The notes under the pieces are model-generated. The model was not told where the DNA came from. It ran no database searches and saw only the letters and a list, made by a program, of their open reading frames with translations. DNA of 56,234 nt, filler included, from Malassezia furfur (taxonomy: Eukaryota), in NCBI GenBank assembly GCA_052055015.1. It is 2 parts of 2 records of this genome, joined end to end, with 100 filler letters (N's around TTAATTAATTAA, not from the genome) between each part and the next. Parts side by side here need not be neighbours in the genome. Positions count along the whole stretch, not along the records: positions 1 to 28,114 come from JBQJIT010000112.1; positions 28,215 to 56,234 come from JBQJIT010000113.1. One strand, written 5' to 3'. Below are positions 2,189 through 55,300 of this stretch, piece by piece; the stretch's first letter is position 1, and every line of letters starts with the position of its first letter. Made by a program: the position numbers and the translations under genes.

Positions 2189-3400
2189 ATGACACCTCAG
2201 CAACGCGAAGCCCAGCGAACACTGCGTGTGGCGTACGAAGCACGGTTACCGCCCAATGCACGGCGATTCCCTTGGCCGGACCGCGTCGGACTGATCACCG
2301 CACAAGAGGGGCTGGACAAAGTACTCTTTGACCAAGCGCGGATCTTCCGCGCGAACGATGAATATGAACGTGCGTTCCTCAAGCACCTCGTCACTCGCAC
2401 GGAGCATGCCATTTCTGATGCGACGCCCGACGAGGAGCGCGCCATCCCGATACCACGGCAGGACTGGGCGGTAAACGAGGGAATTCTCGAGCGCTATGTC
2501 GAGCTGGTCTCGCTCCCTACGGCGGAAGATGCCCCTGGGGGACTCGTCGGTGCACCGGTGCCCCAGCCCATGTATCTGCGCCACTTTTTCCCTTGTGACG
2601 ATGGCGAAGACGACCCGGTGCTGGGACCATCAGCAAGCATCACACTCCACGAGGAGGGCGTGGCCATCTCGCAGGGGACCACCGGCCTGAAAACATGGGA
2701 GGCCAGCTACCGACTCGCCGCCTACCTCGTCGCCGAGCAGACTTCTTGGCGGTCACAGGCGCAAAGCGTCGTGGAGTTGGGAAGCGGCGCGGGGTTCCTG
2801 GGCATGGTGTGTGCGCGCCTCTTGCGCGGAACGTCGTCGCGGATCCTCTTGACCGATATCGCTGGCAACGTGTTGGAACGCTTGCAGGAGACGGCACATC
2901 TTAGTACGTATCTTGAGACTGACCAAGACAACGTGCAGGGAGGCGTGTTCACGGCGCCGCTAGACTGGGCCGAAGCGTACTACCGCCGGACCAAGGAGAC
3001 CTCCCTTTTGCGCAACGCCAACGCCACGCGCGTGTTGGCAGCCGATGTGGTCTACGACCCGGAGCTGATCGTGCCGTTCGTCGATGCTTTGCGCACGGCG
3101 CTGACTGGCTCGGACGATGATTCGCGGTACCCCACCGACCCGGAATGGGACGAAAACATCCCTTACGCCCTTGTCGCAAGCACTGTACGCAACCCGGCGA
3201 CGTACGAGGCGTTCTTAGACCGGCTCACCGCCGAAAAACTGCGCTGGAAGAAGGTCGAGATACCCACGCCGGTCTGGCCCGGCTCCGACGAGACGACAGC
3301 GCCCTTGCCGCTTTTCCCATCCACGCACGATCCTGAACTGGAAGGCTCGGTGGCTCTCCTACATGTACAGCTACAGCCACGCTCACCCGTGGAATTTTAG
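2189..3400 (+). CDS. EFM3: SAM-dependent protein-lysine methyltransferase, EFM3/FAM86 (eEF2-KMT) type
   Basis: ISQGTTGLKTWEAS, VVELGSGAGFLG, AADVVYDP, ASTVRNPATY motifs; probable in-frame 24-nt intron 2904-2927 (gtacgt...ctgaccaag). Confidence 0.85.
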   Translation: MTPQQREAQRTLRVAYEARLPPNARRFPWPDRVGLITAQEGLDKVLFDQARIFRANDEYERAFLKHLVTRTEHAISDATPDEERAIPIPRQDWAVNEGILERYVELVSLPTAEDAPGGLVGAPVPQPMYLRHFFPCDDGEDDPVLGPSASITLHEEGVAISQGTTGLKTWEASYRLAAYLVAEQTSWRSQAQSVVELGSGAGFLGMVCARLLRGTSSRILLTDIAGNVLERLQETAHLSTYLETDQDNVQGGVFTAPLDWAEAYYRRTKETSLLRNANATRVLAADVVYDPELIVPFVDALRTALTGSDDDSRYPTDPEWDENIPYALVASTVRNPATYEAFLDRLTAEKLRWKKVEIPTPVWPGSDETTAPLPLFPSTHDPELEGSVALLHVQLQPRSPVEF

Positions 3401-4295
3401 ACAGACCCAATACTGCTCGCGGCTCTGCGCACGACTCGCGTCCATTTTTTCGGAGCGCACAGACTGGAAGTGTTTGGCCAGCACTTCGCGCCGGAATTCC
3501 TCGGCCTCAGCACTCATAAAGTACTTGCACACAAACGCTGAGGGTAGCGCATCCAGGGGCGTCGACCGCGTCACCCGCACGTCGGCATCCGGCGTCGGGC
3601 GCAGCACCGCGCGACAAAAGTCCTGGGTCAGGTGCCAAGACGTACAAACGCCGCCATGCACAGGTCCAACGAGGCCTGCGAATCGCGAATCGGGTTACCC
3701 GAGGTGTTTGCTGCGTGAGCATCGCTAGACCTACCCATCATATCACTCAGCACCACATCCACACCGCCGGACCGATCGTCCCCGCCGCACTGGGCCGCGA
3801 TCCTCGCCTGTAGTTCCTCTCGGATGGCTGGTTGCGTAAAATCCCCTTGCATATACGTTGCTTCCGGCACCGATGCTTGTAGCGGCAAGAGATCCAGGGC
3901 AAACAAATGCGCATCGGGGCAAAGGGACCGCACGGCCTGGCACCAGCCACCCGGGGCTGCGCCCAGGTCCACTACCGTGCGTCCGGGGCGAAATAGGGGG
4001 TATTTTTGCGCAAGCTGAAGGAGCTTGTACGCCGAGCGCGACACAAAATCCGCCCCGTCTTGGTTGCGCTTCCGTACGTACTTTCGTCAGACAAACTTGT
4101 GCCTTACCTGGTCACGCCGCTGTCGGTCGAGATCTTTTGCGTAAGAAACTGGCACCTACATTTTGCGGACGAGCCACCTCGCCGATTCGACACAGAGCGC
4201 GTGATCACATTGGGTGCCTTTCTACTTAGACATGTCTCGTATCTTGTTAACGCCACACGATAAAGGTCGGCGCCACGGCTCCGACAAACGGGCAT
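3383..4295 (-). CDS. MRM2: RrmJ/FtsJ-family mitochondrial rRNA 2'-O-methyltransferase
   Basis: Spliced model with introns 4134-4159, 4081-4107, 3711-3734, 3623-3645 gives GSSAKYLDRQRRDQYV...SRSAYKL...VVDLGAAPGGW...VVLSDMMANTSG...VCKYF...ASRAQSREQYWV; start codon less certain. Confidence 0.88.
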
Positions 4296-7914: not shown

Positions 7915-7916
7915 TC

Positions 7917-9744: not shown

Positions 9745-12158
9745 ATGACAGGCTCTTGGCAGGCGTCGGTGCGTGACCAGGGTGTGGTACGTGCGCACAC
9801 TGACACAGGCGCCCTACCATCCGGATCCACACTACCGCGTGTTTCGCAATGTACGTGAGTTTGGCGCTATAGGCGGCGGCATAAAGGACGACACGGATGC
9901 GATCAACCGCGCCATCGCGGACGGCGCGCGGTGCGGTGCGGGGGCGGACAGCTGTACCACGGCACCGGCCCTGGTGTATATCCCGCCCGGCACCTACCGC
10001 TTGTCCAGACCGATTGTATCGTTTTACAATACACATATTCTTGGCGACGCAGCTGCGCGCCCCGTGCTCAAGGCGCTCCCGCACTTTGAAGGGATCGCGA
10101 TGATCGACGAGAATCCCTACCATCCGGGGGGGAAGAACTGGTACATTCCCCAGAACAACTTTTTCCGCTCAGTGGCGAACCTCGTGCTGGACCTCACTGA
10201 CATGCCACCGTCGTCTGGCACCGGCATTCACCACCAGGTCAGCCAGTCCACCGGACTCACCAACGTGCACTTTGAAATGGTGCGCGGCGCTGAGTCGAGG
10301 CAGCAGGGCATATTTATGGAGAATGCCAGCGGAGGGTTCATGTCCGACCTGTCGTTTTCGGGCGGGCGGTATGGCGCATGGCTCGGCAACCAGCAGTTCA
10401 CCGTACGGAACGCGCGCTTCGCTCACTGCCACACGGCCATCTGCCAGTATTGGAACTGGGCATGGACATACATGGACATCCACGTCGAGGACTGCCAGAT
10501 TGCGATGGAGATGCACGGCATGCACCCCGACCGGCAGGGCGTCGGTGCGCTCCTCCTCTTTGACTGGTACATCCACAACACGCCTGTCGGCGTCTGGCTC
10601 GAAGACGCCCAGACGGGGCACCTCACACTCGACCACGTCCGTGTACGAAATGTACCAGCGATTGTACAAGACAGTCACGGGTCGACCCTTCTTGCCCCGC
10701 CGGATGGTAGCACGGACTATTCGGTGCCGCTCTGGATCAAGGCGCCGGCTCCATCTGACGCAGCGCCTTTGCCAGGCATGGAGCGCCGCGGCTCGCTGTT
10801 TGTGGGAACGCCCACAGTCCGTCCGCATCGGCCGTCGTGCCTAGTGGATGCGCAGGGAAGATGGTTCGGCCGCGAAAAGCCCCAATGTACGCTGCATACT
10901 GACGCAGTCCCAGACGCCAGCAACCGCGACATAGTCAGCGTGCGCGATTTTGGCGCGACAGGCGACGGAGCCACGGACGATCACGCAACATTGCAATCTG
11001 CACTCGATGCAGGCGTTGGAAAAATTGTATATGGTACGCAAGGAGTCTAACACCCAGTGCCCTACGGTATCTACGTCGTCCAAGATACACTGCACGTCCC
11101 AATAGGCTCGCGGATCGTCGGCGAGGCCCAGCCGGTGATTTTGGGAAGTGGTGCGCAGTTCAACGATGCACGCCATCCTCGCCCCGTCGTCCGCGTCGGG
11201 CACCCGGGTGACGTGGGTGAACTGGTCGTATGCGACCTGATTTTTAGTACGCGGGGGCCGACCGAAGGCGCCATCGTCGTCGAATGGAACGTGCGCGAAT
11301 CACATCAGGGTGCCGTCGCCATGTTTGATGCCCACATCCGCATCGGCGGCACGACAGGTACCAACCTGGAAACCGACACCTGCGAAAAACACAAGCAGCT
11401 AGATGCGTTGCCCCGCGCCAGCTTCCTCAACCTGCATGTGACACCCAAAGCAAGCGGCTATTTCCAAAATGTGTGGATTTGGACGGCAGACCAGTACGTT
11501 GGAAGACTCACACAGTGCGTTGGACAAAGATGCGCCCGTGCAGATCAACGTACTCAGCGCGCGTGGGGTGTTGATTGAAGCTGACCAAGGGCCGGTTTGG
11601 ATGTACGGCACAGCCAGCGAGCATGAGCTCCTGTACCAATATTCCCTCATCGGTGCCAGGAATGTGTTGCTGGCCATGATCCAAACCGAGTCGCCTTACT
11701 TCCAAGGGCGTTCGTTTGCGCCGGCATCGCTGAACGCCAGTCCGCATCCGTCCTTCCCTGATCCTGACTGTGCACGACACTACGAATGTGCCGCCAACGT
11801 GCCACTGAAGCCGTACGTGACCTCGCAAGAGGACCGTGCATTGGGGCTGCACTTGGAGCGCTGTCACTCCATTTTTGTGCTCGGCGCAGGTCTATACTCC
11901 TTTTTTGATTCGTATGCACAAGATACGCTGGCGGCCCATGCCTGCCAGCGCCGTATTTGCGTCATTGACGACGAAAAGCCAGGAACATCAAGCGATATCT
12001 GGCTCTTTCACATCGCTACGGTCGGCACCGAGGTAATTTTGACCATGGATGGGCAGGATGTGGTGCCTGAAGACACTTACCGGGAAGGATTCTGCAGCAC
12101 GCTGACCTTGGCTGCGCTCCACCCTCATGGTCAGACTGAGGGCGTCTTTCTACTGTAG
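9745..12158 (+). CDS. GH55 exo-beta-1,3-glucanase, apparently lacking a signal peptide
   Basis: Introns 9787-9808, 10887-10907, 11034-11057, 11494-11515 join three ORF-track pieces: MTGSWQASVRDQGV|APYHPDPHYRVFRNVREFGA..DDTDAIN..PGTY..QNNFFRSV..GIFMEN..NQQFT..WTADH..GTASEH..MIQTESPYFQ. Confidence 0.9.
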
Positions 12159-14566: not shown

Positions 14567-15281
14567 TCATTCCGGTTCAGGTACTAGAATTCCAATCATT
14601 GCGGGCCCAATCACTGCGTCGATGTTTACCCAGGAATGCGTGAGAACTGCGTTAGAAGTGGCATACACACAGAAAAGCCGTGTGCCATCACGTCCGGCGA
14701 TGCGCATCAGTGTCTCCTGTCCGCCAGGATGGAAACGCAAGTAGGGAGTCATATTGTACACTTTGCCCTCCAGGGCTGTCCATGCGTCCGACCGAGAACT
14801 GTGCCGTTTCAACTCAGACGGCGTGACACGGAGGAAAGAGGTAACGCCACCCTGGGTAAGCGGTAACACATACACGTAGATCCGTTGAGTTTTTGATGCG
14901 TGCCCAGTCGAGTGGACTGCAGCCTGGCTCGAGTGCCACCTTTTTCCGGCCCGGATTGTTGAGACGTGCAGACGATGTCACGGTGGGTGGCTGAAGACCG
15001 CCCGCCGGACGACGCAGGGAGTTTATGGGCGGACCGAGTTTTGGCGCAGCGAGTTTCTGTTCGCGTGACGGCGCTGTGTGCAGCGGCGTTAAGTCCGCAC
15101 GCGGCGCCGCTTGGCGTTGTGCGCTGTGGGGCGCCGGAAATGCAGGCGGCGTATCGTCGGGGAGGTCGACGCGTGGTGGTGGCATACCCCCATCATTTGT
15201 CGTGCCCTCATCCTCTGTAACTTGGGGCAAATCTTGAACTGAGAGGTGTTGTAACGCGTCCGCTGTCGCGTCGCGGTCCAT
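14567..15281 (-). CDS. Cytochrome b5 heme-binding domain protein (Irc21 / CYB5R4 N-terminal-like)
   Basis: RKKVALEPGCSPLDWA, then DAWTALEGKVYNMTPYLRFHPGG...GRDGT...HSWVN; introns 14852-14873 and 14647-14670. Confidence 0.85.
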
Positions 15282-15381: not shown

Positions 15382-16370
15382 ATGACGACTACACCGTTTC
15401 GTTACATGAAATCCAAGACGGCGGCGCTGATCAGCTTCCCGTTCAGCGGTGGCCAGCCGCGCAAGGGTGTTGAGCTTGGTCCTGAGGCGCTCCTCAAGGC
15501 TGAGCTGCCCAAGCAGCTCGAGAGCCTTGGCTGGAAGGCCGATCTGAACCAGTCGATCGACTGGAAGATGGTCAACGACATGCTCCAGGACGACCCGGAC
15601 ATTGGCACGCTCAAGAACCCGCGCTCTGTGTCGAAGGCGAGCGAGCTCCTCGCCGATGCGGTCGAGAAGAGCGCGCGTGCCGGCGAGCTGCCGCTCGTTC
15701 TGGGCGGTGACCACAGCCTGGGCACCGGCTCGATGATCGGTCTGAACCGCGTGTACCCCGACGTCGCGACGATCTGGGTGGATGCGCATGCGGACATCAA
15801 CACGGCCAAGACGACGCCGTCGGGCAACCTGCACGGCTGCCCCGTGTCGTTTGCGCTCGGCCTCGAGGGTTCGTACGTGGAGCCGTTCAAGAGCTGGCTG
15901 CCGAACCCGCCGATCGCGAGCCCCAACCGCCTGGTGTTTATTGGTCTGCGTGACGTCGATGAGGGCGAGCGCAAGATCCTCAAGGAGCACAACATCAAGG
16001 TGTTCTCGATGCACCACATCGACAAGTACGGCATCGGCAAGGTCGTCGAGATGGCTCTCGACCACGTCAACAATGGCACGAGCCGCCGCGACCGCCCTAT
16101 CCACCTGTCCTTTGACGTGGACGCGATGGACCCGAGTGTCGCGCCGAGCACCGGCACGCCGGTCCGGGGTGGTCTTACATTCCGCGAGGGCCACTACATC
16201 TGCGAGGCGATCCACGAGACGGGCTCCGTCGTGGGCATGGACCGTACGTATTTCTTACTCACGCAGTCGTCGAGGTCAACCCTCTGCTCGAGACCGAGGC
16301 CGCCGCGCAGACCATTGCGGTGGGCTGCTCGCTGATCCGCTCGACGCTCGGCGAATCGCTGCTGGACTAA
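15382..16370 (+). CDS. CAR1: Arginase
   Basis: GGDHS, WVDAHADINT, SGNLHGCP, SFDVDAMDP, TGTPVRGGLTFREG; 23-nt intron 16244-16266 restores MDLVEVNP and a stop at 16368-16370. Confidence 0.95.
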
Positions 16371-16387: not shown

Positions 16388-17077
16388 CTAACTGGAAGGG
16401 CGCTCGTTCCGCACCGCGCCCTGGGCGACAGCGTGCATCGAGACGCCGGGCGGGGCGACTTCTGTCTTGAGCACCCGCCGCGCCTTGGCCTTGGGCTTGG
16501 GCGCTTTGGTGTTCTCGGTGAGGTAGAACTGCCGCAGAATCAAAATAGCTTCTTCGCGAAGGTAGCCGCCGTCGGATCGGTACGGCGGGCTGAGGGGTAG
16601 ATACGGCGTCGATTGGATGGGCAGCACAGTGCCGTTCCCACCAAAGCGCTCGTTTCCTGCGCCAAACACCACACGCCCAATACCAATCTGGCGCAGCGCC
16701 GAGGCGCACATCAGGCACGGCTCGATGGTGACGTAGAGCGTCGTGCGGAGCAGCGGGTTGTCGCCCGGCGGCCCTTCGTGTGGTTTGCGGCCGAACTCTG
16801 GGTTTTTCGGAGGCTGCTGCGATAGGATGTAGTCAATTGCCTCGAGCTCGGCGTGTCGCGTCGCCTGCGTGAGTGGAGCACGTACGTTGAGCAACTCGTT
16901 GGTACGGTTGCGACCGCGCGCGATGACGCGGCCATCCTGCACAAACACGCAGCCGACCGGCACTTCCTCATGGTCCATTGCCTCCTGTGCCATGTCGAGG
17001 GCCATGCGCATGTACCGCACGTCCTCCTCGGACTGGTCCTGCGGCGCGACGTAGGTTGCGCAGCCGACCGTCGCCAT
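16388..17077 (-). CDS. TAD2: tRNA-specific adenosine-34 deaminase catalytic subunit
   Basis: EVPVGCVFV, ATRHAE, LYVTIEPCLMCA, VFGAGNERFGGNG; in-frame 21-nt intron 16865-16885. Confidence 0.92.
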   Translation of the reverse strand: MATVGCATYVAPQDQSEEDVRYMRMALDMAQEAMDHEEVPVGCVFVQDGRVIARGRNRTNELLNVRAPLTQATRHAELEAIDYILSQQPPKNPEFGRKPHEGPPGDNPLLRTTLYVTIEPCLMCASALRQIGIGRVVFGAGNERFGGNGTVLPIQSTPYLPLSPPYRSDGGYLREEAILILRQFYLTENTKAPKPKAKARRVLKTEVAPPGVSMHAVAQGAVRNERPSS

Positions 17078-19500: not shown

Positions 19501-20061
19501 ATGCCGGCGTACCACTCGACGTACAACGACGAGCCGAACGTGCGGCAGCTTGCCTCGATCTCGGTGCTCCCGCTGCACACGCGCAGCCGCGGGCCTGCGC
19601 CGCCGCCTGGTACGTGGCGTGCTGACCCAGTCGACCCATCGCGGCCCGACATTGTCGACGAGGCGATCGACCTGTTCCGGGCCAACTCGCTCTTCCGCAA
19701 CTTTGAGATCAAGGGCGGCGCGGACCGCCTGCTGATCTACCTGATCCTGTTCATCTCGGACTGCCTCACGCGCATCGCCGCGTCGAACCCGACGTGGACG
19801 AAGCACGAGGCGCTCAAGCAGCTCTCGTCGCACGCCGTCGACCACTTTGCGCTGCCCGGCGACGCCAACTTCCCCCTCAGCTCGCTGTACGCGGCGCCCG
19901 CGAGCCGCGCCGACGCCGACGCCCTGCGCCAGTACATCACGCAGGTGCGCCAGGAGCTCGTCGTGCGCCTCGTCGAAAAGGTGTACGGCAGCAGCGACAC
20001 ACCGTCGCGCTGGTGGCTCGCATTCACCAAGCGCAAGTTTATGGGGAAGAGCTTGTCGTGA
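19501..20061 (+). CDS. ARC18: Arp2/3 complex 21-kDa subunit (ARPC3)
   Basis: MPAYHS, RGPAP, DIVDEAIDLFRANSLFRNFEIKGGADRLLIY, WWLAFTKRKFMGKSL; in-frame 21-nt intron 19610-19630. Confidence 0.95.
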   Translation: MPAYHSTYNDEPNVRQLASISVLPLHTRSRGPAPPPGTWRADPVDPSRPDIVDEAIDLFRANSLFRNFEIKGGADRLLIYLILFISDCLTRIAASNPTWTKHEALKQLSSHAVDHFALPGDANFPLSSLYAAPASRADADALRQYITQVRQELVVRLVEKVYGSSDTPSRWWLAFTKRKFMGKSLS

Positions 20062-21948: not shown

Positions 21949-22361
21949 TTAGTCGCGCAGCAATGTACATTTTTTGAGGATGCGCACCAGCGCCTCGGGC
22001 TTGCGGTTCGGCGCTATGGCCAGGCACGTCGGCACATGCTCAGGCTCCTCGATCCACAGGTGGTACGGCGGCACCTCGCCGGCACCTGCCGCGTCCAGCT
22101 GCGCAGCCAGCGCCTCTAGACTCGTGTTCTTCGGCGTCTGCAGCACAATCTTGTGCATCGAACCCAGGTGCTCGGGCGCAACGTATGCCTGCGTATCCGC
22201 CCGGTCCGCAGTGCGCGCCAGCACCGCCGTCGCAGCATGGGCCGCCTGCGCCATCATGGGGCCCATAGTCCACCCGTGCTCCTGGCATCAGTACCACCAC
22301 CTACCTTGATCAGCGCACGGTCCACGATGAGCTGCATCACCAGCGGCGTCACCGACGTCAT
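21949..22361 (-). CDS. PTH2-family putative peptidyl-tRNA hydrolase (PTRHD1-like)
   Basis: LVMQLIVDRAL|..WTMGPMMAQAAHAATA, MHKIVLQ, HLWIEEPE..PTCLAIAPN; 23-nt intron 22282-22304. Confidence 0.85.
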
Positions 22362-39487: not shown

Positions 39488-41345
39488 ATTCTATAGTACA
39501 AGACGCTTGCGTTCGCGCGTCACGCTTGGCGAGCTCAATTTTTGCGCGAACATGGCGCAATCCGAAGGAGTGTGGATCATTGCACAGACGCAGCCACGGC
39601 TGTCCACCAACCTCGGTGCGCTCCAGCCAGCCCGGCGCGATCGACATAAGCATAGCGACCGACGCTTCGCTCTCGGTCCGACTGAGGGCGACCTTGGCTG
39701 AGTTTTCCAACGAGACCAACACATCGACCAATGGTAGTACACGCGACGTCCGCCCATGGCGCGACTGTGCGGGCACATTGGAGGAGACAAACAGCAGATA
39801 GATGGCCTCAGCCATCTCGCTTAGACGCGACAGCATCGAGCGTTCGTGTAGCGTTGGTGCCGCGGATTTTGGTTTCTGCCCATGTCGAGCGGCGTGCATC
39901 GCCTGCTCCTTGGCTCGAATGCGCTCCTCGAGCGACAACTTGGCCGTCGCAGAAGGCACGGGCGCCGGCTCAGCTGCACGCATGTCCCGCGGCACAATCG
40001 GAGCGGCCGGGACAGCAACACGCAGCGTCGGCAGCTTGGCCTCGGCCATAGGCGGCACCGAATCCAGGGCGAAGTCGGGATGCCACGCCGCCAGCTTGGG
40101 CGCTTTTCGCTTGCGCTGTGCACTCTGCGGCGGCGTTGTCGGTAACTCGCGAGCACCGCGGCCCGCTAGAGGCGAGGTCGGCGGCGAGTTCGGAGGCTCG
40201 TGCCGAATGCGCTGCGCGTGCGTCCCGCCCGACCGCGTCGCTGTCGGCGTGAGCAGGCCGTTGGATGTGCGGTAGCCCGTAGGGAGCTTGGGCGTGCTTG
40301 GCGTGTCCGCAGAAGCCAAGGGGGTATCCTGTAAAAACGGCTGTTGTGCAAGCCATCGGTCGTGCGACATGGCCACGAAATGACACAGACGGCGGTGAAA
40401 TTCGGCTCGCCGTTCGTCAACGCCGTTGTTCCACATTGCAAGGTAGCTCATCTCTTCACGTGTCGAGGGCGACGAGGGTGCGCGCAAGCGGTTCGGTGAT
40501 CGCCGCCGTGGGCTTGCCGTATTGCCCGGTGACCCGAACGTCACAGTCGGCGACACGACAGTTTTGGGCTCGTAGAGCTGCATTTCGATCCCGATACCGT
40601 AGTCAAAGATGCGCTTGTGGGTGTGTAAGTCGATGGTGCGTGCACGCGATACGACAAAACCCATGCCGCCCGCTTCCATGGGCGGAGGCGCCGGGGACGA
40701 CGGCATAGGGGTATCAGACCCAGGCGCATGCGACCAAACCCACACGAGTCGTTTGAAGTCAGCCATGGTAAACGTGCGCCGCAGTGTGCGTTCCACCATT
40801 GGCCGTAGGGTATGAAAGTGGATCACGTTGGCGATCCGCAAGCGCCGTGCAAGGCCATCATCGTGTGCCTCGGCGGCCGGGGCTCCCGATGTCGCCATAT
40901 GTACAAGGATGCTTTGTTCCACGGCGACATGCACGTCAAGGAGGAATTGTAAATGTTGTGGAAGTGGAAGTGCATCGTCAAACTCGTAGTGCGTCTCGCT
41001 GCGCATTTCCTTCGCAACGAAGCGTTCTCGGTCTAGTTCTTCCTCGGAGTGGAACTTGGGCAAGTTCGATTTCCGTGGAGACGCCCGTTCCACGAGCCGC
41101 GCTGTACTTCCCCCCAGCTCGAGCTTGACCGGCGGCCCAAGAGCGTCGGTGAACGGAACGGCACGCCGCTTGGCATGGCTGCGTGAGTCGTTGCGCACGT
41201 ACGATTCGCGCACTGACTTGGGCGTGAGGAAGAGCTCCTCGTCACTGTCTTCACGTCTACGTACTAGCGGGCCTCTATCCTCGTCCAACGCAGGGTTGAC
41301 TCTCGTCCCTGCGTCGCGACCCGCTAGCAGTGCCCACTCGGTCAT
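39480..41345 (-). CDS. CDT1: Replication licensing factor Cdt1-like
   Basis: LPLPQHLQFLLDVH.AVE, LRPMVERTLRR.F...FKRLVWVW, WHPDFALDSVP, SLEERIRAKE, LS..E...L..IAPGW; start uncertain. Confidence 0.75.
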   Translation of the reverse strand: MTEWALLAGRDAGTRVNPALDEDRGPLVRRREDSDEELFLTPKSVRESYVRNDSRSHAKRRAVPFTDALGPPVKLELGGSTARLVERASPRKSNLPKFHSEEELDRERFVAKEMRSETHYEFDDALPLPQHLQFLLDVHVAVEQSILVHMATSGAPAAEAHDDGLARRLRIANVIHFHTLRPMVERTLRRTFTMADFKRLVWVWSHAPGSDTPMPSSPAPPPMEAGGMGFVVSRARTIDLHTHKRIFDYGIGIEMQLYEPKTVVSPTVTFGSPGNTASPRRRSPNRLRAPSSPSTREEMSYLAMWNNGVDERRAEFHRRLCHFVAMSHDRWLAQQPFLQDTPLASADTPSTPKLPTGYRTSNGLLTPTATRSGGTHAQRIRHEPPNSPPTSPLAGRGARELPTTPPQSAQRKRKAPKLAAWHPDFALDSVPPMAEAKLPTLRVAVPAAPIVPRDMRAAEPAPVPSATAKLSLEERIRAKEQAMHAARHGQKPKSAAPTLHERSMLSRLSEMAEAIYLLFVSSNVPAQSRHGRTSRVLPLVDVLVSLENSAKVALSRTESEASVAMLMSIAPGWLERTEVGGQPWLRLCNDPHSFGLRHVRAKIELAKRDARTQASCTIEST

Positions 41346-41423: not shown

Positions 41424-43666
41424 TCAGGGGTCGTCGAGGGGCAGGGACAGCGCGGTTCTGGGTCAGCAAGACACACACCTCCACTGCATTGCGCTCGCGG
41501 CGCTAGGCGCACTCAGTAGGCACGCCGTGTTGTTTGTGTATAGGCCCAGCACGTGTTTTTGGGGGTCGTCCACCATGGCAGGATAGACGTGAACGCCACA
41601 CAGATAGACGTTTAAAATCACATCGCAGCCCCCAGGTTTTATACGCGCAATCAGGAAAGGGCTGTGTTAACAAAGGATCGTACGGGCGCAGTTCGAACCA
41701 GGCGTGCAGCCAGGAATTGCTCAATGCATCGCGCTGAATATCCAGCCATCCTTCGACTAAGCAGCGGTCTAGTGTGACCAGCTGTGACTCGGCCGTGTAA
41801 GTAAACGTGCCGGCATTCTCAAGTACACAAGTCCAATGCGCACGGAGCTGTGTGAGCCGATACACTTACCATGGCATAGGCACTCGTTCGTTTTTGCCAA
41901 AACGCCACGAGCGGGTGCAGGTTGGTGCAGGATGCAGGTGGCAGATTCAGGTGCAAAAGCCGCTCTCGTGTTCGGCACACGTTCACAGCATGCATATCTC
42001 TCCGCCATGCCGCCATATAATCAGCGACCAAGGTCAGACCGCGTGGCAAGGGCGTCGTACCCGTATCACCTGGAACCTGCACGGTCCGTGTATCCACGCG
42101 CCACAGATCCTTGGCGCTCACAATGCGCCCGGGAGACAGTGACAAGCTAAAAAACGCATGATGTGCATCTCGCGGAAGGCGTTGCACCTTGTCCCAGAAT
42201 ACATCTTCGACGTTGGGTACTTGCTGCCGTGGTGCAGTCGCCTCCTGAATGCGGAAATGAAGGGGTATCGAGAGAATCAGAGGTTGAGAGTCTTTGATTT
42301 CCACTTCGACATGCAGCACGAGACGGAGGCTGTGCCGCGGCGGGGTAGCTTGCTGCAGAAGCTCCTGGGTCGGGCGCCACAGCGCGAGAACCTCGGCATT
42401 TTGCGACTGGACGCAGCGCTGAAGGGTGCAGTAGTCCGGTTCAGACCGGATTACGGTCCCCAGCCCATCATAGAGCTGTACATCCCCGACTTGTATGCGC
42501 CGGATCCCTTGCCAGGGCAACTCCGCATTCGAATCCGAGTCGAGCGCAACGGCGAGGCATTTGATGCTTGTGTCGTCAATGAGAAAGTAGGGCGTACGGG
42601 CCGATGACTGCTTTACAACCAGCGGTACGCCATTACGGTTCAAGCTAAGCATATGCACCTCGGCACGGACACCGTGGACTGAGCGCAGTCGTCGTTTCCG
42701 CTCGTGGATGCGCGCCTGGCTCGACGGGGGAGTGATGCCCAAAATGGACACTAGGTCCTTACTCGGGAGCCGGAACTGCGACTCTTTCTGCTCGTCTCGT
42801 GCGGCCATCCGGTCAAGGAAGGCGGTTGTGGGGTATGCGAATACGTGAATGGCGGCTGAGCCAAATTGCCAGTGCGCATGCGAACGGTCGGAGCATGGCA
42901 CACGAAGAGTTGCTTGCATCCGCACGTCAGAGCACGGCTGCACTTCCAAAAGGATGGGACGTGTCGCATATGTCTCTGCATTCGGATCGTAAGCCCCTGC
43001 CAATGAATCCAGACGCAACTGAAGGTGCAGCTCGCTAACGTCGTCCACCGTGAGGCCTGTCAGCTCGTCCAAAGTCACACGGCATATGACCCCGTCTTCG
43101 TACGGGCATACATAGGCGATGCCCACGCGGCAGTAGGCCAGGATGCTAAAATCCAGCGACTGAACCGGCATGCGCCACATACGCTGGGTCTGTTGTGCTA
43201 ACGGGAATAGTGGCAAGCGCACAGTTCCAATATGCGAAAACCGTGTTAGATCATTGCCAAACAGTTGGGTATAGATGTCGGTGTGGTGGGCCACCGATGG
43301 TCCCAGCTTGCCAGACCACAGTTTATGCAACGCGCCGACTTGCTCCGTAAGTTTTTCCGTGTCCCAATACAGTATACGGCGCGCCTTACGATGGACGACG
43401 CGCACGAGAGTTTTGGGCACCATTCCAAAGTAGGGATCACTGTGTGATTCGCCTGCCACGCCCCCATGCACCGAGCTTGCTACGTTGCAAGGAAACGGGC
43501 GCTGGATAGCACTTTGGAACTCGACGTGGGCCTCCAGCAAGTTACTGAGCACGTTTGCCTCACGTACCAGGGCCGCGTTGGCCAGCACGGTCTCGGCAGT
43601 ACCTAGCAACGTGATGTCTGCCCATGCCCGCGCCCAGATACTCGCATCGCGACGCTCCAAGGCCAT
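41424..43666 (-). CDS. Diverged kinesin-3 (Unc104/Kin3/KIF1) C-terminal tail protein with PH domain and no motor domain
   Basis: AETVLANAALVREANVLS..VEFQ..I, ILYW..KL, FSHIG..LPL.PL, DLWRVDT....VPG...PRGLTLVADY, then a PH-like block (GWL..NSW..WFELRPPFL..LGLYTNN..LL.A.S...QW) after introns 41848-41869, 41662-41683, 41458-41478. Homology recognised from memory of Unc104/Kin3 tails. Confidence 0.72.
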
Positions 43667-43698: not shown

Positions 43699-45382
43699 CT
43701 ATGATTTCTCCACACTTTTGGCCTGGGCCTGCTGGACCTGGCCCTGGGCGGAGGTTTCGGCCTCTGGCAGCGCCCGCGCCTCCAGCTCCTCTGTTTCAGG
43801 GAGATTGGCACTGCCCACCGTACGACGCATCTTGCTCTTTGACCATTCATCCACGACACGTTGTAGTTCTTCGTCCTCCCGTTTTTGTTCCTCAAGATCT
43901 AGTTGTCGGAGCTCTTCCTCGATTTTTTCGAGATACCCTTCTTCGTGGGCGCGTTGCACCGGGTTTTCCGGTCGAATAATACCGTCCTTTCCGAGTACCG
44001 ACATCATTTCATAGAACTGCTCGGCGGTCATATCGTCATCGACCGCGTGCATCTTGGTTATGAATTGCTCTTCGTCCTCGTCGTCGATTTCCGCCGGGTT
44101 TCTGCGTTCCTGCATCTCGCGTTCGATCTTCATTTGCTCGCCAATGGTATAAAGGACACCAGCAGATGCGTCAATGCCAAACCGGTTCAGCATGACGCGA
44201 GCTGTGTGAGAGAAGAAACGTACCGTTTTTGTCGCCCATGAGGAACATGGCATTCCCGATCGTGAAGGCCAGAAGGGGGTATTGGTCCGAGGTGAGCATC
44301 TTGGCTAAATGTGGAAGCTTGGGCTTCGTCGGGGGGCGGTCCGGCTTGTCCGTTTCCGCGCGTTCGAAGAAGTACTCCTCCATGATTTCGCGAAGTACGT
44401 TGCTGTGCTCCGACAGGTTCGCAATCAACAGCCAAAGCGGCGAAAGGGCCGACTCAACGGTCATGTCGTAATTGAGTTTGACATCGTTCTGGGAGCCAGT
44501 ATCCGGGTCGACAAACCTCTCGAGCGAGCGCGCGGCGATACTGCAAACCTTTTTGGCGAGTTCAGTAATCCGTACGTAGCGCCCACGGTCGGGTGGCCGA
44601 CAGACGCACATTAGCGATGCCGCATATTGTATGGCGACATCGCCAAGAAAATCGTCCATGACTTTCGCGGCCATAAGGGTGCGGTACGCAAGGAGGTAGA
44701 GTTCTTCCGGACCAGGTTCCTCGGGGTCCATGGCGCTCATTGCCGCACCCAAGGCTATGCTGAGCTCATTTGAAACATTCCACGAATCCTGTGGCGTGTC
44801 TTCCGGGGGTAACAGCCTCCCAATGGCCTTGATCATGATGCGCAGGTTTTTTCGTCGCTCGACCGGCGAGATTGTCGGGACATAGAATGGGCGCGAAAAC
44901 GAGACATTGGCCAAACGAACCGCGCACGACACCGAGTGCAGGGAATCTTTGCTCTCCTTGAGCGCATCAAATACCTCGGACTGGTCAAGGAAGCGGACCA
45001 GCGCACGCATCGTCGACTCGTCCATCTCGTTGGCAAGCTCCTTGTTGTGGACCACGATGTTGTTCATTGCGCGCAGCGCGTACTCCGCCACCTCTGGCTC
45101 TTCTGCATACGGCTTCATCACAGATACATCAGCCATGCGCTTCATCATTGGCGCTGTGACGATCGGCGAGTCGGGCGTCGCATCGCGGCTCAGTCGATGG
45201 ACGGCGCGCACAACTAAACGACGAAGATCCACGTCTTGGATGTCGCCCATGATGTCCTCGGCCAGTTGCTTCGACACCTCTTCGCGCTCCGGTACATTGA
45301 AGTTGTCTTCTGCCAACAGTGACGACAGCGCCGCACGACGCTGCGCCGGGTCGCCCTGGACCTTCGCGTACGTCTTCCACAT
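43699..45382 (-). CDS. RIC8: Ric8/synembryn-like G-alpha GEF/chaperone (diverged)
   Basis: ALRAMNN, LSPL, DRP..KP.L..L.KML, G...SAG.L, DDMTAEQ; 22-nt intron 44202-44223 joins the two ORF-track pieces. Confidence 0.7.
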
Positions 45383-45428: not shown

Positions 45429-48400
45429 ATGGGGGCCACGGATGATCGATGGGTGCCTCCGAGGCAGGCGCAGTGTGCATTCGCACACGCCACTCTCGGC
45501 AACGTGCATCGTATTGAGTGGCGCAAGCTTGCAGCCAAAGATGGCACTAGCGGGGCGATTGACCAGCTCGCACGGGCGGCGCAGCACATGCAGAAGCAAG
45601 CGGCAGCCGCGCGTACCTTTTGCTCGGCGACCAGTGCACCCGCACAGGTGCTTCAGCTGCTTCAGTATGCCTCATTGTATCATCTTGAGTCAAGCGCGGA
45701 AGAGCAAGTGTTGTGGCTTTTTCAGTTGCCCGATGGGCCGTCGATTGTGCCGGACGCGGCCTTGGAGGGACTGGAAGGTATGTGTGCCGCCTGACGCAGT
45801 GCATGAGGCGGGTGAGTATGTCATGCAAAGTGCTACTCAAACCCCCACGTCGGCGCATATGCGCTTCCTTGAGGCAGTGCAGGCGGCCGTCGCCGACGCC
45901 TACGTCGACAGCACCGATCACGCCGTTCGGTGCAGCTCCGGCGTCTTTTTACCCCACGACGCGACGCTCGTGCAGTTCCGCGCTCATACCACCCAGACGA
46001 ACCTCGTGGTGCGCATGGCCATCGAGGCGATGCCTTGGCAGCCGCTTGCGATGGAATACGAGGCGGGCGATACGCCCGTCGCACGGCCAGAAGAAAAGCC
46101 GGTCGTGCTGCTTCCGTCTCTGGCACCCGCGACGTTTCTGGGTGCAGTGCCATACACTTCTACGCCATCAACTACGCGGCTGTCGGACGCACTCAAAGGT
46201 TCCTTGTGTCAGACACGCGCAGATGCCACGGCACTATGTCGAGTACGCGTGCTGGTCCATGCGCCGCCGAGCGCGCTTCCGACCGACGCACTCGACATGG
46301 GTCTCGATTTAGGGCACAGTACGATCTCAGTGACGCTGTCATGGCCCGCGGCTTTGTGTCTGCAGCGTATACCGAGCGCTGCGACGAGCGAAGCCCTTGC
46401 TCCGCTGCGCGAGCAAAGTGTTACGGCATTACTGGAGGCCGCCCGCGCGCCGCCCGCACCGCAATCACCGCCACGCGTACCGCTGCTACCGGATGTACAG
46501 GTGCACGGCCCGGGCGCACCGCTCACCACCAACGAGCTTGATGACGACGTGTTCCAAGGGATTGGGCAGCTGACCGAGGACGACTTTCGCTTCTTTGATG
46601 GCCCAAGCGAGGCACAGACCCCGCACGATGTACCACTCATCCAGGGCCCGGGCACACCCGAGGCGACGGCGCGCGCTGACATCGAGCTCAAGTCAGCATC
46701 CGAGCTCGACGCAGAGCTTCCGTCGGCATCTGAACCAGATGCCGAGGTGGTCACGGCGCCTCTGTCGCAGGGCGCCCCCAGTCCGCCGCCCGTCACAGCG
46801 CTCGCACCACCGCCGCTCCCCGTGCTCAAGTCGTCGAGCCCCGTGTATACCCCCAGCGCGTGGTCGCCCGAGCGCAGCGTGCGCCTCGCGGACAAGTATG
46901 ACGTACACGGCAAATTTTACACACCCACCGCGCTGCGTGACCGCAAGCGCGCCCACTCGTTTGAGGCAGACGAGCGGCGCACCGCAATGCGCCTTTCGCC
47001 GCGTACCTCGACACCACAGAGCACGGTGCTGAGCTCACCCTCGACGCACGTCTCGCCCTCGGACTCGTCTGCTTCGTCGGACGACGAGCCCGATATACCG
47101 CTGACCATGCGCGCTGCACTGCTCTACCGGCTACATACGAGTGCATGGGCGCCGCCGCCCACACCGCCTACGTACGATGCCGCGCCGGCGTCCGAGCTGG
47201 CGCGCCTCGCCTCGGCGGCGCTCGGCCACGTCCACGCGCCGGCCGCGCATGCGGCGCTCCCAGCGTGGGACGCGCTGACTACCCCCTGTGCCGCCGTGCG
47301 TCTCGCCACGCCGCGCCTGCTCGTTGGATGCCAACGCGCGGTTGTCGAAGTGGACGCGAACGCCTTAGACGCCTGGCCAACGCTCGGGCTCGAGCCGGTG
47401 GATGGCCCCAAGCGCATGCATGTCGCCGCCGTGCTCGTCGGCGACGTTGATGCGGCGGCAGTACGCGAGTGGCTCGTGGGGCTGCAGCGCACCTATGCGC
47501 GCCTGCGCATGGGTAAATTGTCGCCGTGCGACGTGTTTGTCTTGCGCAACACTCAGCTCGAGCACACCACGGGGCAGCCCGCGGCACTCGTCGACGCTTT
47601 CCAGGCGGCGTCACCCGCCGACGCACGCGCCGTGCTCGTCGTGTACGCGCCGGACGCAGAGCGTGCCGCCGAACAAACGTACGAAATGTGGTACCGCGCA
47701 CATTCCGTCCTGCCGGTGCCGCGCGCGGCAGTGCAGCCGGCCGCGACGCAACACCCTGCGTACCTCGCGCAACAGGTGCACGCGCTCTACAACGCGGCCG
47801 CACGCGCACACAGCCAGATGCGGCCCACTGCCGCGCTGGCGCCGTCGCACTATGACCCGTGCCGCTACCTGCGGCCGCGATGTGCGCTGCGCCTCGACGC
47901 GTGCGACGGGCCGCACGAGGTGCTGCAGCACGGCGCGGTACTACACCTCGCGTACGAGGTGCGCCCTCGCGCACATGGTGCGTGTGTGCGGGTCGTCGGC
48001 ATCGACGACCGCGCGCAGCGCTCCTTCCTGCACACCTGGCCGGCGACCGAAGCAGAGGCCGACATAGCCCGGGTGTGGGACACAGCATGCTCCGAGATGC
48101 ACGCTGCCGTCGGCGTCGCATGGCACGTCATCGTGAGCCGCGCAGGGCCGATGCCGCCGGGTGAGGTGCGTGCGTGGGCGGCGCTCGACGCGTCTGGTGC
48201 ACTCCGCCGCGGCCAAGGCGCGCTCGACGTGGTCATCGTGTGTGTCGAGCTCGGTGCGCCGCTACTACCATGCGCCGCATTGTACGGTGCATCGCAGGCG
48301 GTGCTCGCCGGCGAGCGCATGGCCATTCTGCAAGACCCGCTCGTTCTCGCGCAGCACACCGCCTATGTCTGCGGCCGCGACGGCGCCGACGCCTGGTCCG

Positions 48401-48573: not shown

Positions 48574-48654
48574 GGGACGCGGTCTGGATGCACACGTGTA
48601 TATAAACTGGGGGAGGGAAAGGGGTGCCCATACAATTCATCTACATCTCACTGT

Positions 48655-50888: not shown

Positions 50889-52252
50889 TCAATAGAGTAA
50901 GCGAATCAGCCACGAGGTCCACAGCCCCATCAGGAAACGCTCGAGATTGTACACTGCCGGTTAGCCAACGTCGCAGCGCCACACGTACGTAGAGAAAGAA
51001 CGGGGAAAACGCCGTCAATCATTTCGCGCATACTCCACGAATCCTCGTGTCGCACAATCCGCCCAGCCTCGTTAAACTCAAGGCGGCTCAGAAGACGCAG
51101 CTCGATCGAAAAGAGCGAGCGGAGTGTCCGCCGCGGCGAGATGAGGTTTACTAGAAGCACCCAGATCGAGTTGCGCCCGAGGCCCTGGGCAGACCAATGT
51201 GGGATGCCGGCATCGAGCGGCATGGCAGGGCGCGTGTCAATCGGCATCGGCGTTGACACCGAGTCGTGACTCGCGCTCACCGGCAGCCCCGAGGTGTCGA
51301 GCTGTTCCGGCTCCGAGCCCCGCGGCATCGGCCCAAACTCGCTGTCGGCCACCCCGTCCGCGTTCGATGGCGGTGCTGGCGACGCGAGGCTCTGCTGCGC
51401 CGAGAATGGCTCGGCATTCGCCTCGGGAACGCCGGGTGTCCGGGGCCGCGAGCTCCACCGACTGCTGCTCGAGTTGGTACGCTGCATGAACGGCGTAGCG
51501 GGCGTTGCGGGGCTCATAGCAAAGCCGTACCCCGACCGGGAGCGGTGAAAGCCGCTGCCGTCGGCGGTAGTCGGGGTCGCGTAGTTTGCAAACGGGTGTG
51601 GGGTAACCGAGCCATGGCTCATGGGGGCACCGGGCGTCGTGGCCGACGACACGCCGTTGTAGTCTTTGTGTGCGCCAAATAGCATAGGGAAGAAGGTAAT
51701 TGTGATGGTATGGTCGATGATCCCTGCGCGTGTCCCGTCAAATTCAAAGTCGGAGCAGATCACGTCGCGGAGCTCGGAACGGATGTCGATGCCCGGGCAA
51801 GCGAAAGCGAGCACGAACTGGTCGATGATGCGCCGTCGGCCATGTACAGAGACAAGCGGGCTGTCAAATACAGCGTCGCCATCGTAGTAGCGCCAGACCG
51901 TTTCGCGGATTTCCTCGACGCTGCGCTTGGCGCCGTACAGCGACGCATGGAGGGTGAGGATGATGTCGGTGAGCGTGCTGGGGGACGGGGGTGCGCCGGT
52001 CTCAAAGTCACTCATGTCCTCCACGGCAGAGCCTTGGAGGTTGTTCAGCGCAATGTTCATCGGCTGCGGCGTATTCCCGTTGGGCGGGATGGACACCTTG
52101 GGCTCCACGGCGGGGGCCGACTGGATGGCGCTCGAGCGCCTGCGCAGCAGCCCACCGCCGGATGGGCGTGGTGTTGAGCTGGGAAAGTAGCCGTCGTTGG
52201 TCATTTGCTTTGCATGACTCCAGCTAGGGGAGCGCGAATGGTGGCTCGCCAT
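50889..52252 (-). CDS. Conserved hypothetical protein with a split SnoaL/NTF2-like fold
   Basis: [19 protein letters not shown] and, after a Pro/Ser-rich insert, [19 protein letters not shown]; 35-nt intron 50954-50988 gives a stop at 50889. Confidence 0.7.
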
Positions 52253-52374
52253 GTCTTGCTCTACCCCACGGGCTGACCGAATCCGGGAACCGGTATGGTC
52301 GCGGCGAGGCGGCGAGTGCTTACGTCACACTTCATAAAGGAGCGCGGACCACCCGGGCTACGCCACGACCGACC

Positions 52375-55300
52375 ATGACCGCGCAAGATTCGATCGACGA
52401 GTCGCTGTACAGCCGGCAGCTGTATGTGCTGGGTCATGATGCGATGAAGCAGATGTCATCGAGCAGCGTGCTCATTGTGGGCGTGCAGGGCCTCGGTGCC
52501 GAAATCGGTACGTTGCGCCGCCACACACTGACGCAGCCAAAAATACGGCGCTGGCAGGCGTCAAGAGTGTCACGCTGTACGACCCCGCGCCCGTTGAGGT
52601 GGCCGACCTGAGTACGCAGTTCTTCCTGCGTGCCGAGGACGTGGGAAAGCCCGGTGTGACGCGTGCTTCGGCGACGGCCACGCGCCTCGCCGAGATCAAT
52701 ACCTACGTGCCTGTCAAGGCGCTCGAGGTGCCTGAGCTTACGCGTGAGGTGCTGTCGCAGTTCCAGGTGGTGGTGCTGTGCAACCAACTGCTCACGGAGC
52801 AGCTGCGTGTAAATGACTTGACGCACAACACTGCGACGCACTTCCTGGCCGCGTCGATCCACGGCCTGTTTGGCAGTGTGTTTGCCGACTTTGGGCGCGA
52901 CTTTGTGTGCAAGGACACGACTGGCGAGCAGGCTCTGTCCGGTATGGTGGTGTCGGTCGAAAAGGACGGGGAAGGCCTCGTCACGACGCTCGACGAAACG
53001 CGCCACGGCCTCGAGGATGGTGACTACGTCACCTTCTCCGAGGTCGAGGGCATGACGGAGCTGAACGACATCGAGCCGCGCCGCGTCACGGTCAAGGGCC
53101 CGTACACCTTCACGATCGGCGACACGTCGTCGTTCGGCGACTACAAGCGCGGCGGCCTGTTCAAGCAGGTCAAGCAGCCGGTCACGTTGCAGTTTGCGTC
53201 GCTGCGCGAGAGCCGTGCAGCACCCGAGTGCCTCGTGTCCGACTTTGCCAAGATGGACCGGCCGCCGCTGCTGCACGTCGCGTTCGAGGCGCTGTCGCAG
53301 TTTGCCGAGGCGGCGCAGCGCCTGCCTCGTGCGCGCAACGACGAGGATGCCGCGGCGGTGCTAGAGCGTGCGCAGGCGCTGGCGACCGAGCGCAAGGTGC
53401 TGCCTGAGGACGAGGCGGGCCAGAAGCTCTTTACGACGCTCGTCAAGGAGTTGGCGTATCAGGCGGTGGGCAACGTATCGCCGATGGTGGCGTTCATCGG
53501 CGGGTTTGTCGCGCAAGAGGTGCTCAAGGCGTGCAGTGGCAAATTCCACCCCCTGATGCAGTACATGTACGTCGACTGCCTCGAGGCGCTCCCCGCCAAC
53601 ATTGCGACGCTGCCCGCGAGTGAGTTTGCGCCGCAGGGCACGCGCTATGATGGGCAGACGGCCGTGTTTGGTACGTCGTTCCAGCAGCGCATCGCCAATG
53701 CACGCCAGTTCTTGGTGGGCTCTGGCGCGATTGGCTGTGAGATGCTCAAGAACTGGAGCATGATGGGCCTCGGCAGCGGCCCCGAGGGCCAGATCTACGT
53801 CACGGACAACGACACCATCGAGAAGAGCAACCTTAACCGCCAGTTCCTCTTCCGGCAGCAGGACGTGGGCCATTTCAAGGCGGACACGGCGGCCGCGGCA
53901 GTCGCCGAGATGAACCCGGATCTGAAGGGCAAGATCCAGAGCTTCCAGAACCGCGTGGGCCCCGAGACGGAGGACGTGTACGGCGATGCGTTCTTTGAAC
54001 GGCTCGACGGTGTGACCAACGCGCTCGACAATGTCAACGCGCGCCAGTACATGGACCGCCGCTGCGTGTACTACCAGAAGCCGCTGCTCGAGTCGGGCAC
54101 GCTCGGGACCAAGGCCAACACCCAGGTGGTGGTGCCGAACCTGACCGAGTCCTACTCCTCGTCGCAGGACCCGCCGGAGAAGTCGATTCCGGTGTGCACG
54201 CTGAAAAACTTCCCGAACCAGATCGAGCACACGATCCAGTGGGCGCGCGAGCAGTTCGACGAGCTCTTCCTGAAGCCCGCCGAGAATGTCAACCTGTACC
54301 TGACGCAGCCCGACTTTGTCGCCTCGCTGGGGACGAGCGACGCGGGCACCAAGCAGCAGCTTGAGCAGATCAAGGAGTTCCTGGTCGACGCGCGCCCGCA
54401 GACGTTTGATGCGTGCATTGCGTGGGCGCGCCTCAAGTTTGAGGAGAACTACGTCAACATGATCAAGCAGCTTCTGTACAACCTGCCCGCCGACGCCGTC
54501 ACCTCGACGGGCCAGCCGTTCTGGAGCGGCCCGAAGCGCGCCCCGACCCCGCTCGCTTTTGACGCGAGCAACCCGTTGCACATGGACTACGTCGTGGCCG
54601 CTGCCAACCTGCACGCCGCCAACTACGGCCTGAAGGGCTCGGCGGACCCGGAGGTGTACCGCCGCGTGCTGGAGCAGGTGTCGGTGCCCGCCTTCACGCC
54701 CAAGTCGGCCAAGGTGCAGATCAACGACAACGACCCGGCGCCCGCGGCGAGCAACGCCGCGGAGGACGAGGCAAGCGTCGAGGAGCTTGCGGCGAGCCTC
54801 CCTGCGCCCAGCTCGCTGTCGGGCTACCGCCTGCAGCCGATCGAGATGGAGAAGGACGATGACACCAACTTCCACATGGCGTTCATCACTGCGGCGTCCA
54901 ACCTGCGTGCGGAGAACTACTCGATCCAGCCCGTGGACCAGTACACCACCAAGGGCATTGCCGGCAAGATCATTCCCGCGATCGCCACTACGACGGCGCT
55001 CGCCACGGGCCTGGTCAACATCGAGCTGTACAAGCTGCTCGACGGCAAGACGGACATTGAGAAGTACTCCAACGCATTTGTGAACCTCGCGCTGCCGTTC
55101 ATTGCGTTCAGCGAGCCGATCGCCGCGCCGCGCCACAAGTACAACGACACCGAGTGGACGCTCTGGTCGCGCTTCGACATCGAGGGCGACGTGACCCTTC
55201 GCACGTTCCTCGACTACTTCCGCGAGAAGAAGCTCGACGTGACGATGGTGTCGAGCGGCGTTTCGATGCTCTACTCCGACTTTATGCCGCCCAAGAAGAA

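Follow-up and report, generated by a model that had tools for sequence, protein, structure and literature searches.

Ultra-short spliceosomal introns have been described in the ciliate Stentor coeruleus (15-16 nucleotides (nt); PMC9505925), in mikrocytids (16-17 nt) and chlorarachniophyte nucleomorphs (18-21 nt; PMC10245619), and in myxobolid myxozoans and Dicyema (median 22-27 nt; PMC13644364). Within the fungal genus Malassezia, which a review credits with "very short introns" (PMC7426719), M. sympodialis has 5350 curated introns with a mean of 30 nt, 99% of them supported by RNA-seq (PMC5389616), and M. restricta introns have a median of 30 nt and a mean of 37 nt (PMC9241646, PMC6473144). 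The annotators of these two compact genomes had already set the minimum intron to 10-20 nt. Here, we analyze a 56,234-nt stretch of an assembly of the skin yeast Malassezia furfur (GCA_052055015.1), hereafter the window, together with further contigs of the same genome, in which the median intron is 24 nt and the mean 26.8 nt. The introns typically measure 21-26 nt and end abruptly at a floor of 21 nt, which is the sum of two limits, 16 nt from the 5′ end to the branch adenosine (branch A) and 5 nt from the branch A to the intron end. Short Malassezia introns as such are in print (PMC5389616, PMC9241646) and are less new than an earlier note on this DNA implied. What we did not find in print is the one-base cliff of this 16+5 architecture and a Malassezia-wide decay of U2AF65.

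With Stentor, the introns analyzed here share GT-AG ends, a hard lower limit, and a tail of 5 nt past the branch A, whereas those of Stentor are shorter, near-fixed in length, and AU-rich; their branch consensus is weak and their loop spans 10-11 nt (PMC9505925). Mikrocytids and nucleomorphs also have the hard limit, again with shorter introns of near-fixed length (PMC10245619). In contrast to this fixed-length type, the present genome combines its floor with a tail of lengths from 21 to over 80 nt, a GC content of 56%, and strong donor and branch motifs; with most introns below 30 nt and a sharp lower limit, it nevertheless belongs among the ultra-short-intron genomes. Myxobolid myxozoans and Dicyema come close in median length, and their pyrimidine tract is absent or very short, but only GTa and AG are left of their signals, and both U2AF1 and U2AF2 are reported as conserved, while in the present genome the signals are strong and the RNP1 motifs of U2AF65 are degenerate; Malassezia is not named in that 2026 study (PMC13644364). 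Yarrowia lipolytica, with 2 nt between branch motif and AG, has the same 5-nt tail and a branch fused to the 3′ splice site. Its introns are, however, few and long (median 204 nt) with a rigid ACTAAC, whereas the present genome has roughly 0.64 introns per kb, a looser CTNAC, and a minimal 5′ part (PMC2483917). A fixed branch-to-AG distance without a pyrimidine tract is also known from Trichomonas and Giardia, Trichomonas having 63 introns (PMC12316389). The text passages on M. sympodialis and M. restricta introns, figures excluded, contain no lower limit, branch geometry, or splicing-factor analysis, and the available portions of four further papers (PMC8476143, PMC3560662, PMC10158995, PMC5209728) contain nothing on Malassezia intron size or small nuclear RNAs (snRNAs). 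In the literature outside subscription journals, we found no paper on a 16+5 floor, branch geometry, or U2AF in Malassezia.

Results

Short introns of the window

Gene models of the window were curated gene by gene with a small self-trained predictor and six-frame views. They place 41 GT-AG introns, 21-36 nt long, in 22 genes between positions 2904 and 52536 (Table 1). The earlier note had listed 40 such segments, all of which were reproduced, and we add a 22-mer at 41683-41662 (-). Its mode of 22 nt and median of 24 nt hold in the enlarged set, which has 8 introns of 22 nt, and its share of introns of 21-24 nt, given as 23 of 40, becomes 24 of 41. If retained, 29 of the 41 introns would shift the frame or bring in a stop codon, and the other 12 are in frame without a stop. 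Direct homology support exists for 12 junctions (TAD2, ARPC3, glucanase, methyltransferase, four in PEX7, 2-hydroxyacid dehydrogenase, CBP6, SAM, and YTP1), while five in-frame cases are mainly motif-based (the eIF3m 33-mer, the 21-mer at 23674, the SAM-RA-SH3 36- and 27-mers, and the CDT1 24-mer). Scanning the window with a strict donor-branch-AG motif gave 27 matches of 20-24 nt, nested duplicates counted, against 3.6 expected from 30 Markov shuffles.

By sequence, the segments are confirmed as introns of the U2 type, and their excision from the RNA as a lariat is predicted. They carry GT (rarely GC) and AG ends with a GTAYGT-type donor and CAG, TAG, or AAG at the 3′ end, as well as a CTNAY motif complementary to GUAGUA of U2, which contains the putative branch nucleotide. 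Their removal restores a conserved frame, with 12 junctions in homology register and 29 of 41 needed for the modelled frame. Among 383 predicted introns, the leading donors are GTACGT (194), GTATGT (57), GTGCGT (38), and GTAGGT (29), the leading branch motifs CTGAC (131), CTCAC (97), CTAAC (57), and CTTAC (28), and the 3′ ends CAG (344), TAG (31), and AAG (8). Donor position +5 is G in 99%, +6 is a nearly invariant T, and GC donors are rare. These counts agree with the donor and branch motifs of the consensus proposed earlier; the tail after the branch AC, put there at about 3-8 nt, is at its shortest 4 nt (N-Y-A-G), not 3. The lack of a polypyrimidine tract is likewise borne out, as U is not enriched between the branch AC and the YAG (69 T in 583 bases). 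The TAD2 21-mer singled out in the note lies at 16885-16865 (-) and has its branch A at position 16, as claimed.

Position +7 is mildly G-biased (201 of 547 predicted introns), and there is no base preference at branch -5. Introns with lengths that are multiples of three are not depleted (185 of 517 predicted introns of at most 40 nt); stops occur in 65 of these 185 and in 90 of the 332 other short introns, a weak excess (p = 0.058). At donor position +4, 371 of 547 predicted introns have a C. This C cannot pair with an unchanged U6 ACAGAGA box or with a standard U1 end, and no compensating change was seen.

A one-nucleotide cliff at branch position 16

The predictor was given a flat intron-length prior of 10-60 nt and a branch A allowed from position 6 onward, and calls scoring above 1 were kept. 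Run on 656 kb including the window and, as held-out DNA kept from training, on a further 198 kb (854 kb in total), it returned 547 calls, homeologous duplicates included. No call has a length of 20 nt, 64 have 21 nt, and 90 have 22 nt; 307 measure 21-24 nt and 465 at most 30 nt. The branch A lies at position 16 in 84 calls and at position 15 in none, whatever the tail, and all 64 21-mers are divided 16+5. If total length were the only constraint, about 24 introns should have the branch A at 15 and a longer tail, yet none was called. From the branch A to the intron end, 245 of 383 predicted introns have 5 nt and none was called with 3 or 4, and in two homeolog pairs an AG lying 3 nt past the branch A is skipped. 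The held-out DNA displays the same pattern of length and branch position.

An annotation-free motif count gave 0 matches with the branch A at 15 and 74 with the branch A at 16, where about 1 is expected, and the excess over shuffles at positions 16-17 is about 60-fold. Shortening the spacers in silico, so as to place the branch A at 12-15, left 78-79 of 79 introns detected; hence, the cliff at 16 is not a detection blind spot. The hard floor that the earlier note had put at about 21 nt is supported, and with its 16+5 division it is sharper than stated there.

Nine motif matches below the floor were read in context. Eight were rejected, as they are nested under an upstream donor, coding, or lost in the homeolog; the ninth, on contig C3, is ambiguous.

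Homeologous introns vary in length but keep their signals

The assembly (13.7 Mb in 1856 contigs) contains homeologous contigs that are 85-92% identical, and the genome is that of a hybrid Malassezia of the furfur group; doubled M. furfur assemblies have been described before (PMC4634964). As only paralogs were retrieved when homeologs of the window itself were sought in DNA searches, the comparison was made on five homeologous contig pairs outside the window, with 121 alignable introns. GT or GC and AG are kept in all 121 pairs. Length differs in 32 pairs, in 28 of them by a non-multiple of three, while the flanking exons, 91% identical, are gapped in a single pair. Among equal-length pairs, donor +5 is kept in 84 of 84, the branch A and the T at branch -2 each in 83 of 84, and spacer identity is 0.64. 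Four pairs shrink to a branch A at exactly 16, and below 16 there are only two calls, both false.

Spliceosome components

U2 snRNA has an intact GUAGUA, and U6 snRNA retains both ACAGAGA and the AGC triad, with one extra base in the internal stem-loop region. SF1 is conserved, with its ULM, SPSP motif, and KH-QUA2 present, as is U2AF35 (E 7e-80 against the 23-kDa U2AF subunit of PDB 4yh8). U2AF65, encoded by two copies in the genome, departs from this pattern. The aromatic residues of RNP1 stack on uridines. The Phe at RNP1 position 5 of RRM1 is found in none of the seven named or own Malassezia proteins compared with 98 of 102 lower-ranked matches, which are mostly from other fungi and include one Malassezia-like protein. 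An aromatic residue at RNP1 position 3 of RRM2 is present in one of the seven compared with 101 of the 102, and the ULM tryptophan is kept in all seven. This decay of RNP1 fits the absent pyrimidine tract. The structurally adapted spliceosome suggested in the earlier note is supported at the 3′ end only, by the degenerate RNP1 motifs, while U2, U6, SF1, and U2AF35 look ordinary; among these five components, which belong to the inventory that it had called for, U2AF65 alone is changed and the other four look canonical.

The two U6 copies, at the homeologous loci L062:1501-1605 (-) and L063 (contigs C243 and C820), are identical over the 105-nt Rfam match and carry a short self-complementary hairpin ahead of the terminal U run.

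Discussion

We consider it probable that these are ordinary U2-type introns which genome compaction has pushed to the physical minimum tolerated, and that this minimum is set by two independent rulers. The 3′ ruler would be a minimum of 5 nt past the branch A, with the sequence C-N-Y-A-G. Bound to the branch motif and to YAG, respectively, SF1 and U2AF35 would abut on C-T-N-A-C-N-Y-A-G and leave no room for a pyrimidine tract. U2AF65, relieved of reading the tract, may then have lost the aromatic residues of both RRMs and probably does no more than connect SF1 with U2AF35. At the 5′ end, the branch A would have to lie at position 16 or beyond, so that the lariat loop measures 16 nt or more. 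Such a loop would take in the 6-nt donor GTAYGT, which U6 reads with its unchanged ACAGAGA box, a short U2 helix on R-C-T-N-A-C, and between them about 5 free nucleotides. Spacer deletions would build up until the loop reaches 16 nt and be purged by selection beyond this point, producing the cliff at 21 nt. The two steps of splicing would remain canonical, with a steric 16-nt limit set in spliceosome activation. We infer this steric limit, as well as splicing at the listed junctions and the protein arrangement at the 3′ end. For human B complexes, the requirement has been estimated at about 52 nt, and a spacing of 46 nt abolishes splicing (PMC6692369); consequently, activation in Malassezia would have to use shorter helices or a looser U2 tether.

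Several observations weigh against this account. The 547 calls count homeologous duplicates, and six of them are shorter than 21 nt; of these, two were shown to be false, three score low, and one is a clean 17-nt motif. The branch in Stentor lies at 10-11 (PMC9505925), so that 16 cannot be a universal limit and would be specific to this lineage. No component change that accounts for the 16-nt spacing was found among U2, U6, SF1, U2AF35, and U2AF65, and the apparent loss of RNA binding by U2AF65 is read from motifs. U1 snRNA was found neither with Rfam RF00003 nor with three patterns, 41 of 173 candidates having been scored in the 1856-contig assembly. The 17-nt donor-branch-AG motif lies on contig C2 (L030:8843-8859 (-)) just upstream of a signal-peptide gene, with its branch A at 12. 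It may breach the floor genuinely, or else it may be the 3′ terminus of a longer intron in an untranslated region (UTR), and a position in the 5′ UTR is likely.

The missing U1 leads to a more radical alternative, in which the U1 small nuclear ribonucleoprotein is lost or unrecognizable, Smu1/RED are lost, the donor is read directly by U6, donor and branch site thereby never being kept at the spacing of a canonical B complex, and the 16-nt floor is the ruler of an altered pathway. The near-invariant G and T at donor +5 and +6 would suit such a pathway, RED_N had no match in a search without a positive control, and no U1-70K-like protein was among 26 translated RRM matches, although no direct search for U1 proteins was made. 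Matches to the U1 patterns were mostly antisense donors (13 loci rescanned, 50 of 61 matches of one scan inspected), and one is presumably the 5′ end of 18S rRNA. Other RRM proteins seen among the scanned matches, which we take to be SF3B4, SF3B6, Cus2, Y14, and Nam8/Pub1 by their resemblance, point away from so deep a change, in that SF3B4-, SF3B6-, Cus2-, and Nam8/Pub1-like proteins are present. Loss of U1 has a precedent in C. merolae; the SF1 of C. merolae, however, lacks the SPSP motif that is retained here (PMC10158995). We regard this alternative as unlikely, also in view of the fragmented assembly, the share of U1 candidates scored, and the uncontrolled RED search. The same holds for a remodelled major spliceosome in which U2AF65 does not read RNA, RED is gone, U1 is lost or unrecognizable, and thousands of introns are set by a U6-read donor and an SF1-U2AF35 clamp 16 nt apart, which we think doubtful. 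If true, Malassezia would be the first fungus amenable to genetics in which such a machine is at work, at a third of the spacing that human B complexes need (PMC6692369).

Real introns with a non-steric floor, kept by recognition-sequence needs or by mutation-selection balance, with the signals and some bases of spacer required for accuracy, so that shorter ones would still be spliced, appear rather improbable. Shorter introns are indeed spliced in Stentor, mikrocytids, and nucleomorphs (PMC9505925, PMC10245619), and the G bias at +7 might reflect such a sequence need. The spacer, though, has no consensus and diverges fast, yet counts fall from 84 to 0 in one step, where a soft balance would leave a tail. 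It is very improbable that the segments are no introns at all but short insertions of coding sequence, frameshifts introduced by a fragmented assembly, or lesions in pseudogenes that resemble GT-AG by chance. The 12 in-frame window cases, five of them motif-only, are compatible with that idea, some NCBI models of Malassezia (P0004, P0245, P0255) keep such segments as coding, and the two false calls likewise kept GT and AG between homeologs. Against it stand the exact 7-residue gap of TAD2 relative to solved structures, Pfam profiles that continue across frame-breaking junctions, the confinement of frameshifting length changes to the intron in 28 of 121 homeolog pairs, the motif excess at positions 16-17, and the RNA-seq support of M. 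sympodialis introns (PMC5389616).

How a multi-megadalton spliceosome handles introns far below the donor-to-branch distance of roughly 50 nt required in human extracts (PMC6692369) has so far been asked for ciliates, mikrocytids, nucleomorphs, and myxozoans. Easy genetics is lacking in most of these, whereas Malassezia is culturable and genetically tractable, with targeted gene replacement and CRISPR established (PMC7426719). The cliff at branch position 16 offers a precise, testable ruler for the minimal intron, and the decay of U2AF65 would be a clean case of a splice signal and its factor changing together. Gene annotation in Malassezia needs a minimum intron of 21 nt or less, as several public models keep such introns as coding. 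The three NCBI models named above, from other Malassezia, have insertions of 8-11 residues at the sites of the fourth PEX7 intron or the methyltransferase intron, which are probably missed short introns.

Genes and features of the window

The window consists of contig C112 and another contig, joined by an artificial linker at 28115-28214 in which a 12-base stop-rich sequence lies between two runs of 44 N. The closest named proteins to its genes are from Malassezia (M. furfur, 88%, for the first gene).

Table 1. Introns in the curated gene models of the window.
Position	Strand	Length (nt)	Gene	Observation
2904..2927	+	24	Lysine methyltransferase (Methyltransf_16)	In frame, no stop; exactly these 8 residues absent from NCBI M. 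furfur and M. psittaci proteins
3623..3645	-	23	FtsJ/MRM2-like	Frame restored; FtsJ profile on both sides
3711..3734	-	24	FtsJ/MRM2-like	In frame, no stop; motif; FtsJ match stops at exon end
4081..4107	-	27	FtsJ/MRM2-like	In-frame stop
4134..4159	-	26	FtsJ/MRM2-like	Frame restored
9787..9808	+	22	Beta-1,3-glucanase	Frame restored
10887..10907	+	21	Beta-1,3-glucanase	In frame, no stop; 7 gap positions in total vs PDB 5m5z here
11034..11057	+	24	Beta-1,3-glucanase	In-frame stop
11494..11515	+	22	Beta-1,3-glucanase	Frame restored
14647..14670	-	24	Cytochrome b5-domain	Donor GTGTGT; nested 20-mer in wrong frame
14852..14873	-	22	Cytochrome b5-domain	Frame restored
16244..16266	+	23	Arginase	Arginase profile ends at 251/280, at exon end
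16865..16885	-	21	TAD2	Branch A at 16; in frame, no stop; exact 7-residue gap vs PDB 7bv5, 3dh1, 7nz7 (Tad2/ADAT2 chains)
17572..17594	+	23	AAA ATPase	Frame restored; AAA profile 1-19 stops at exon end
19610..19630	+	21	ARPC3	In frame, no stop; 8-9 residue gap vs PDB 3dwl, 1k8k here
20175..20207	-	33 (29 with nested donor)	eIF3m-like	In frame, no stop; motif only
21180..21204	-	25	eIF3m-like	Frame restored
22282..22304	-	23	PTH2-family	Frame restored
23674..23694	-	21	No Pfam match	In frame, no stop; motif only
24275..24303	+	29	2-hydroxyacid dehydrogenase	Frame restored
24503..24524	+	22	2-hydroxyacid dehydrogenase	Pfam profile 74 to 76 across junction
25441..25464	-	24	CBP6/UQCC2	In frame, no stop; profile in register across junction
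29298..29328	+	31	SAM-RA-SH3	SAM profile in register across junction
29491..29524	+	34	SAM-RA-SH3	Frame restored
29582..29617	+	36	SAM-RA-SH3	In frame, no stop; motif only
31082..31108	+	27	SAM-RA-SH3	In frame, no stop; motif; SH3_2 match stops at exon end
32117..32144	+	28	YTP1	Ytp1 profile 173 to 175 across junction
32309..32336	+	28	YTP1	Frame restored
32484..32506	+	23	YTP1	Frame restored
34138..34171	-	34	PEX7	Spliced model without insertion vs 9/10 homologs; tenth has 11-residue insertion here
34286..34319	-	34	PEX7	Spliced model collinear with 10 homologs
34432..34461	-	30	PEX7	In-frame stop; spliced protein collinear with ten homologs
34524..34554	-	31	PEX7	Spliced model collinear with 10 homologs
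41179..41202	-	24	CDT1	In frame, no stop; motif only
41458..41478	-	21	DUF3694 gene (41427-43666)	In-frame stop
41662..41683	-	22	DUF3694 gene (41427-43666)	Frame restored
41848..41869	-	22	DUF3694 gene (41427-43666)	Frame restored
44202..44223	-	22	Ric8-like	Frame restored
45778..45799	+	22	MED13-like	Predictor and motif; not strictly required, downstream frame also open upstream of intron
50954..50988	-	35	No Pfam match	Near 3′ end of gene; predictor and motif only
52508..52536	+	29	UBA1	Frame restored; ThiF profile 1-35 stops at exon end

Other candidates in the window were rejected as introns: 122-100 (-), which is coding within a ChaC domain, the nested 20-mer at 14666-14647, which gives the wrong frame, 42597-42567, which lies inside an open frame of 619 codons, and low-scoring long predictor calls in low-GC genes. 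A 45-mer at 23927-23883 (-) is a doubtful in-frame intron in a gene without a Pfam match, where read-through gives a plausible protein. The gene at 41427-43666 (-) encodes 725 residues, has three short introns, and matches only DUF3694.

At the start of the window, 1-2135 (-) is a single open frame of at least 711 codons for a DnaJ/zuotin-like/zinc-finger protein fused to the ChaC domain. Two tandem, intron-poor paralogous genes, presumably related to glutathione S-transferases, which they resemble, lie at 12286-14116 (-) within a low-GC patch (52%). Finally, several donor- and branch-like motifs are found at 35600-35825 (+), 5′ of a long transporter-like frame, and may represent 5′ UTR introns or upstream open reading frames.

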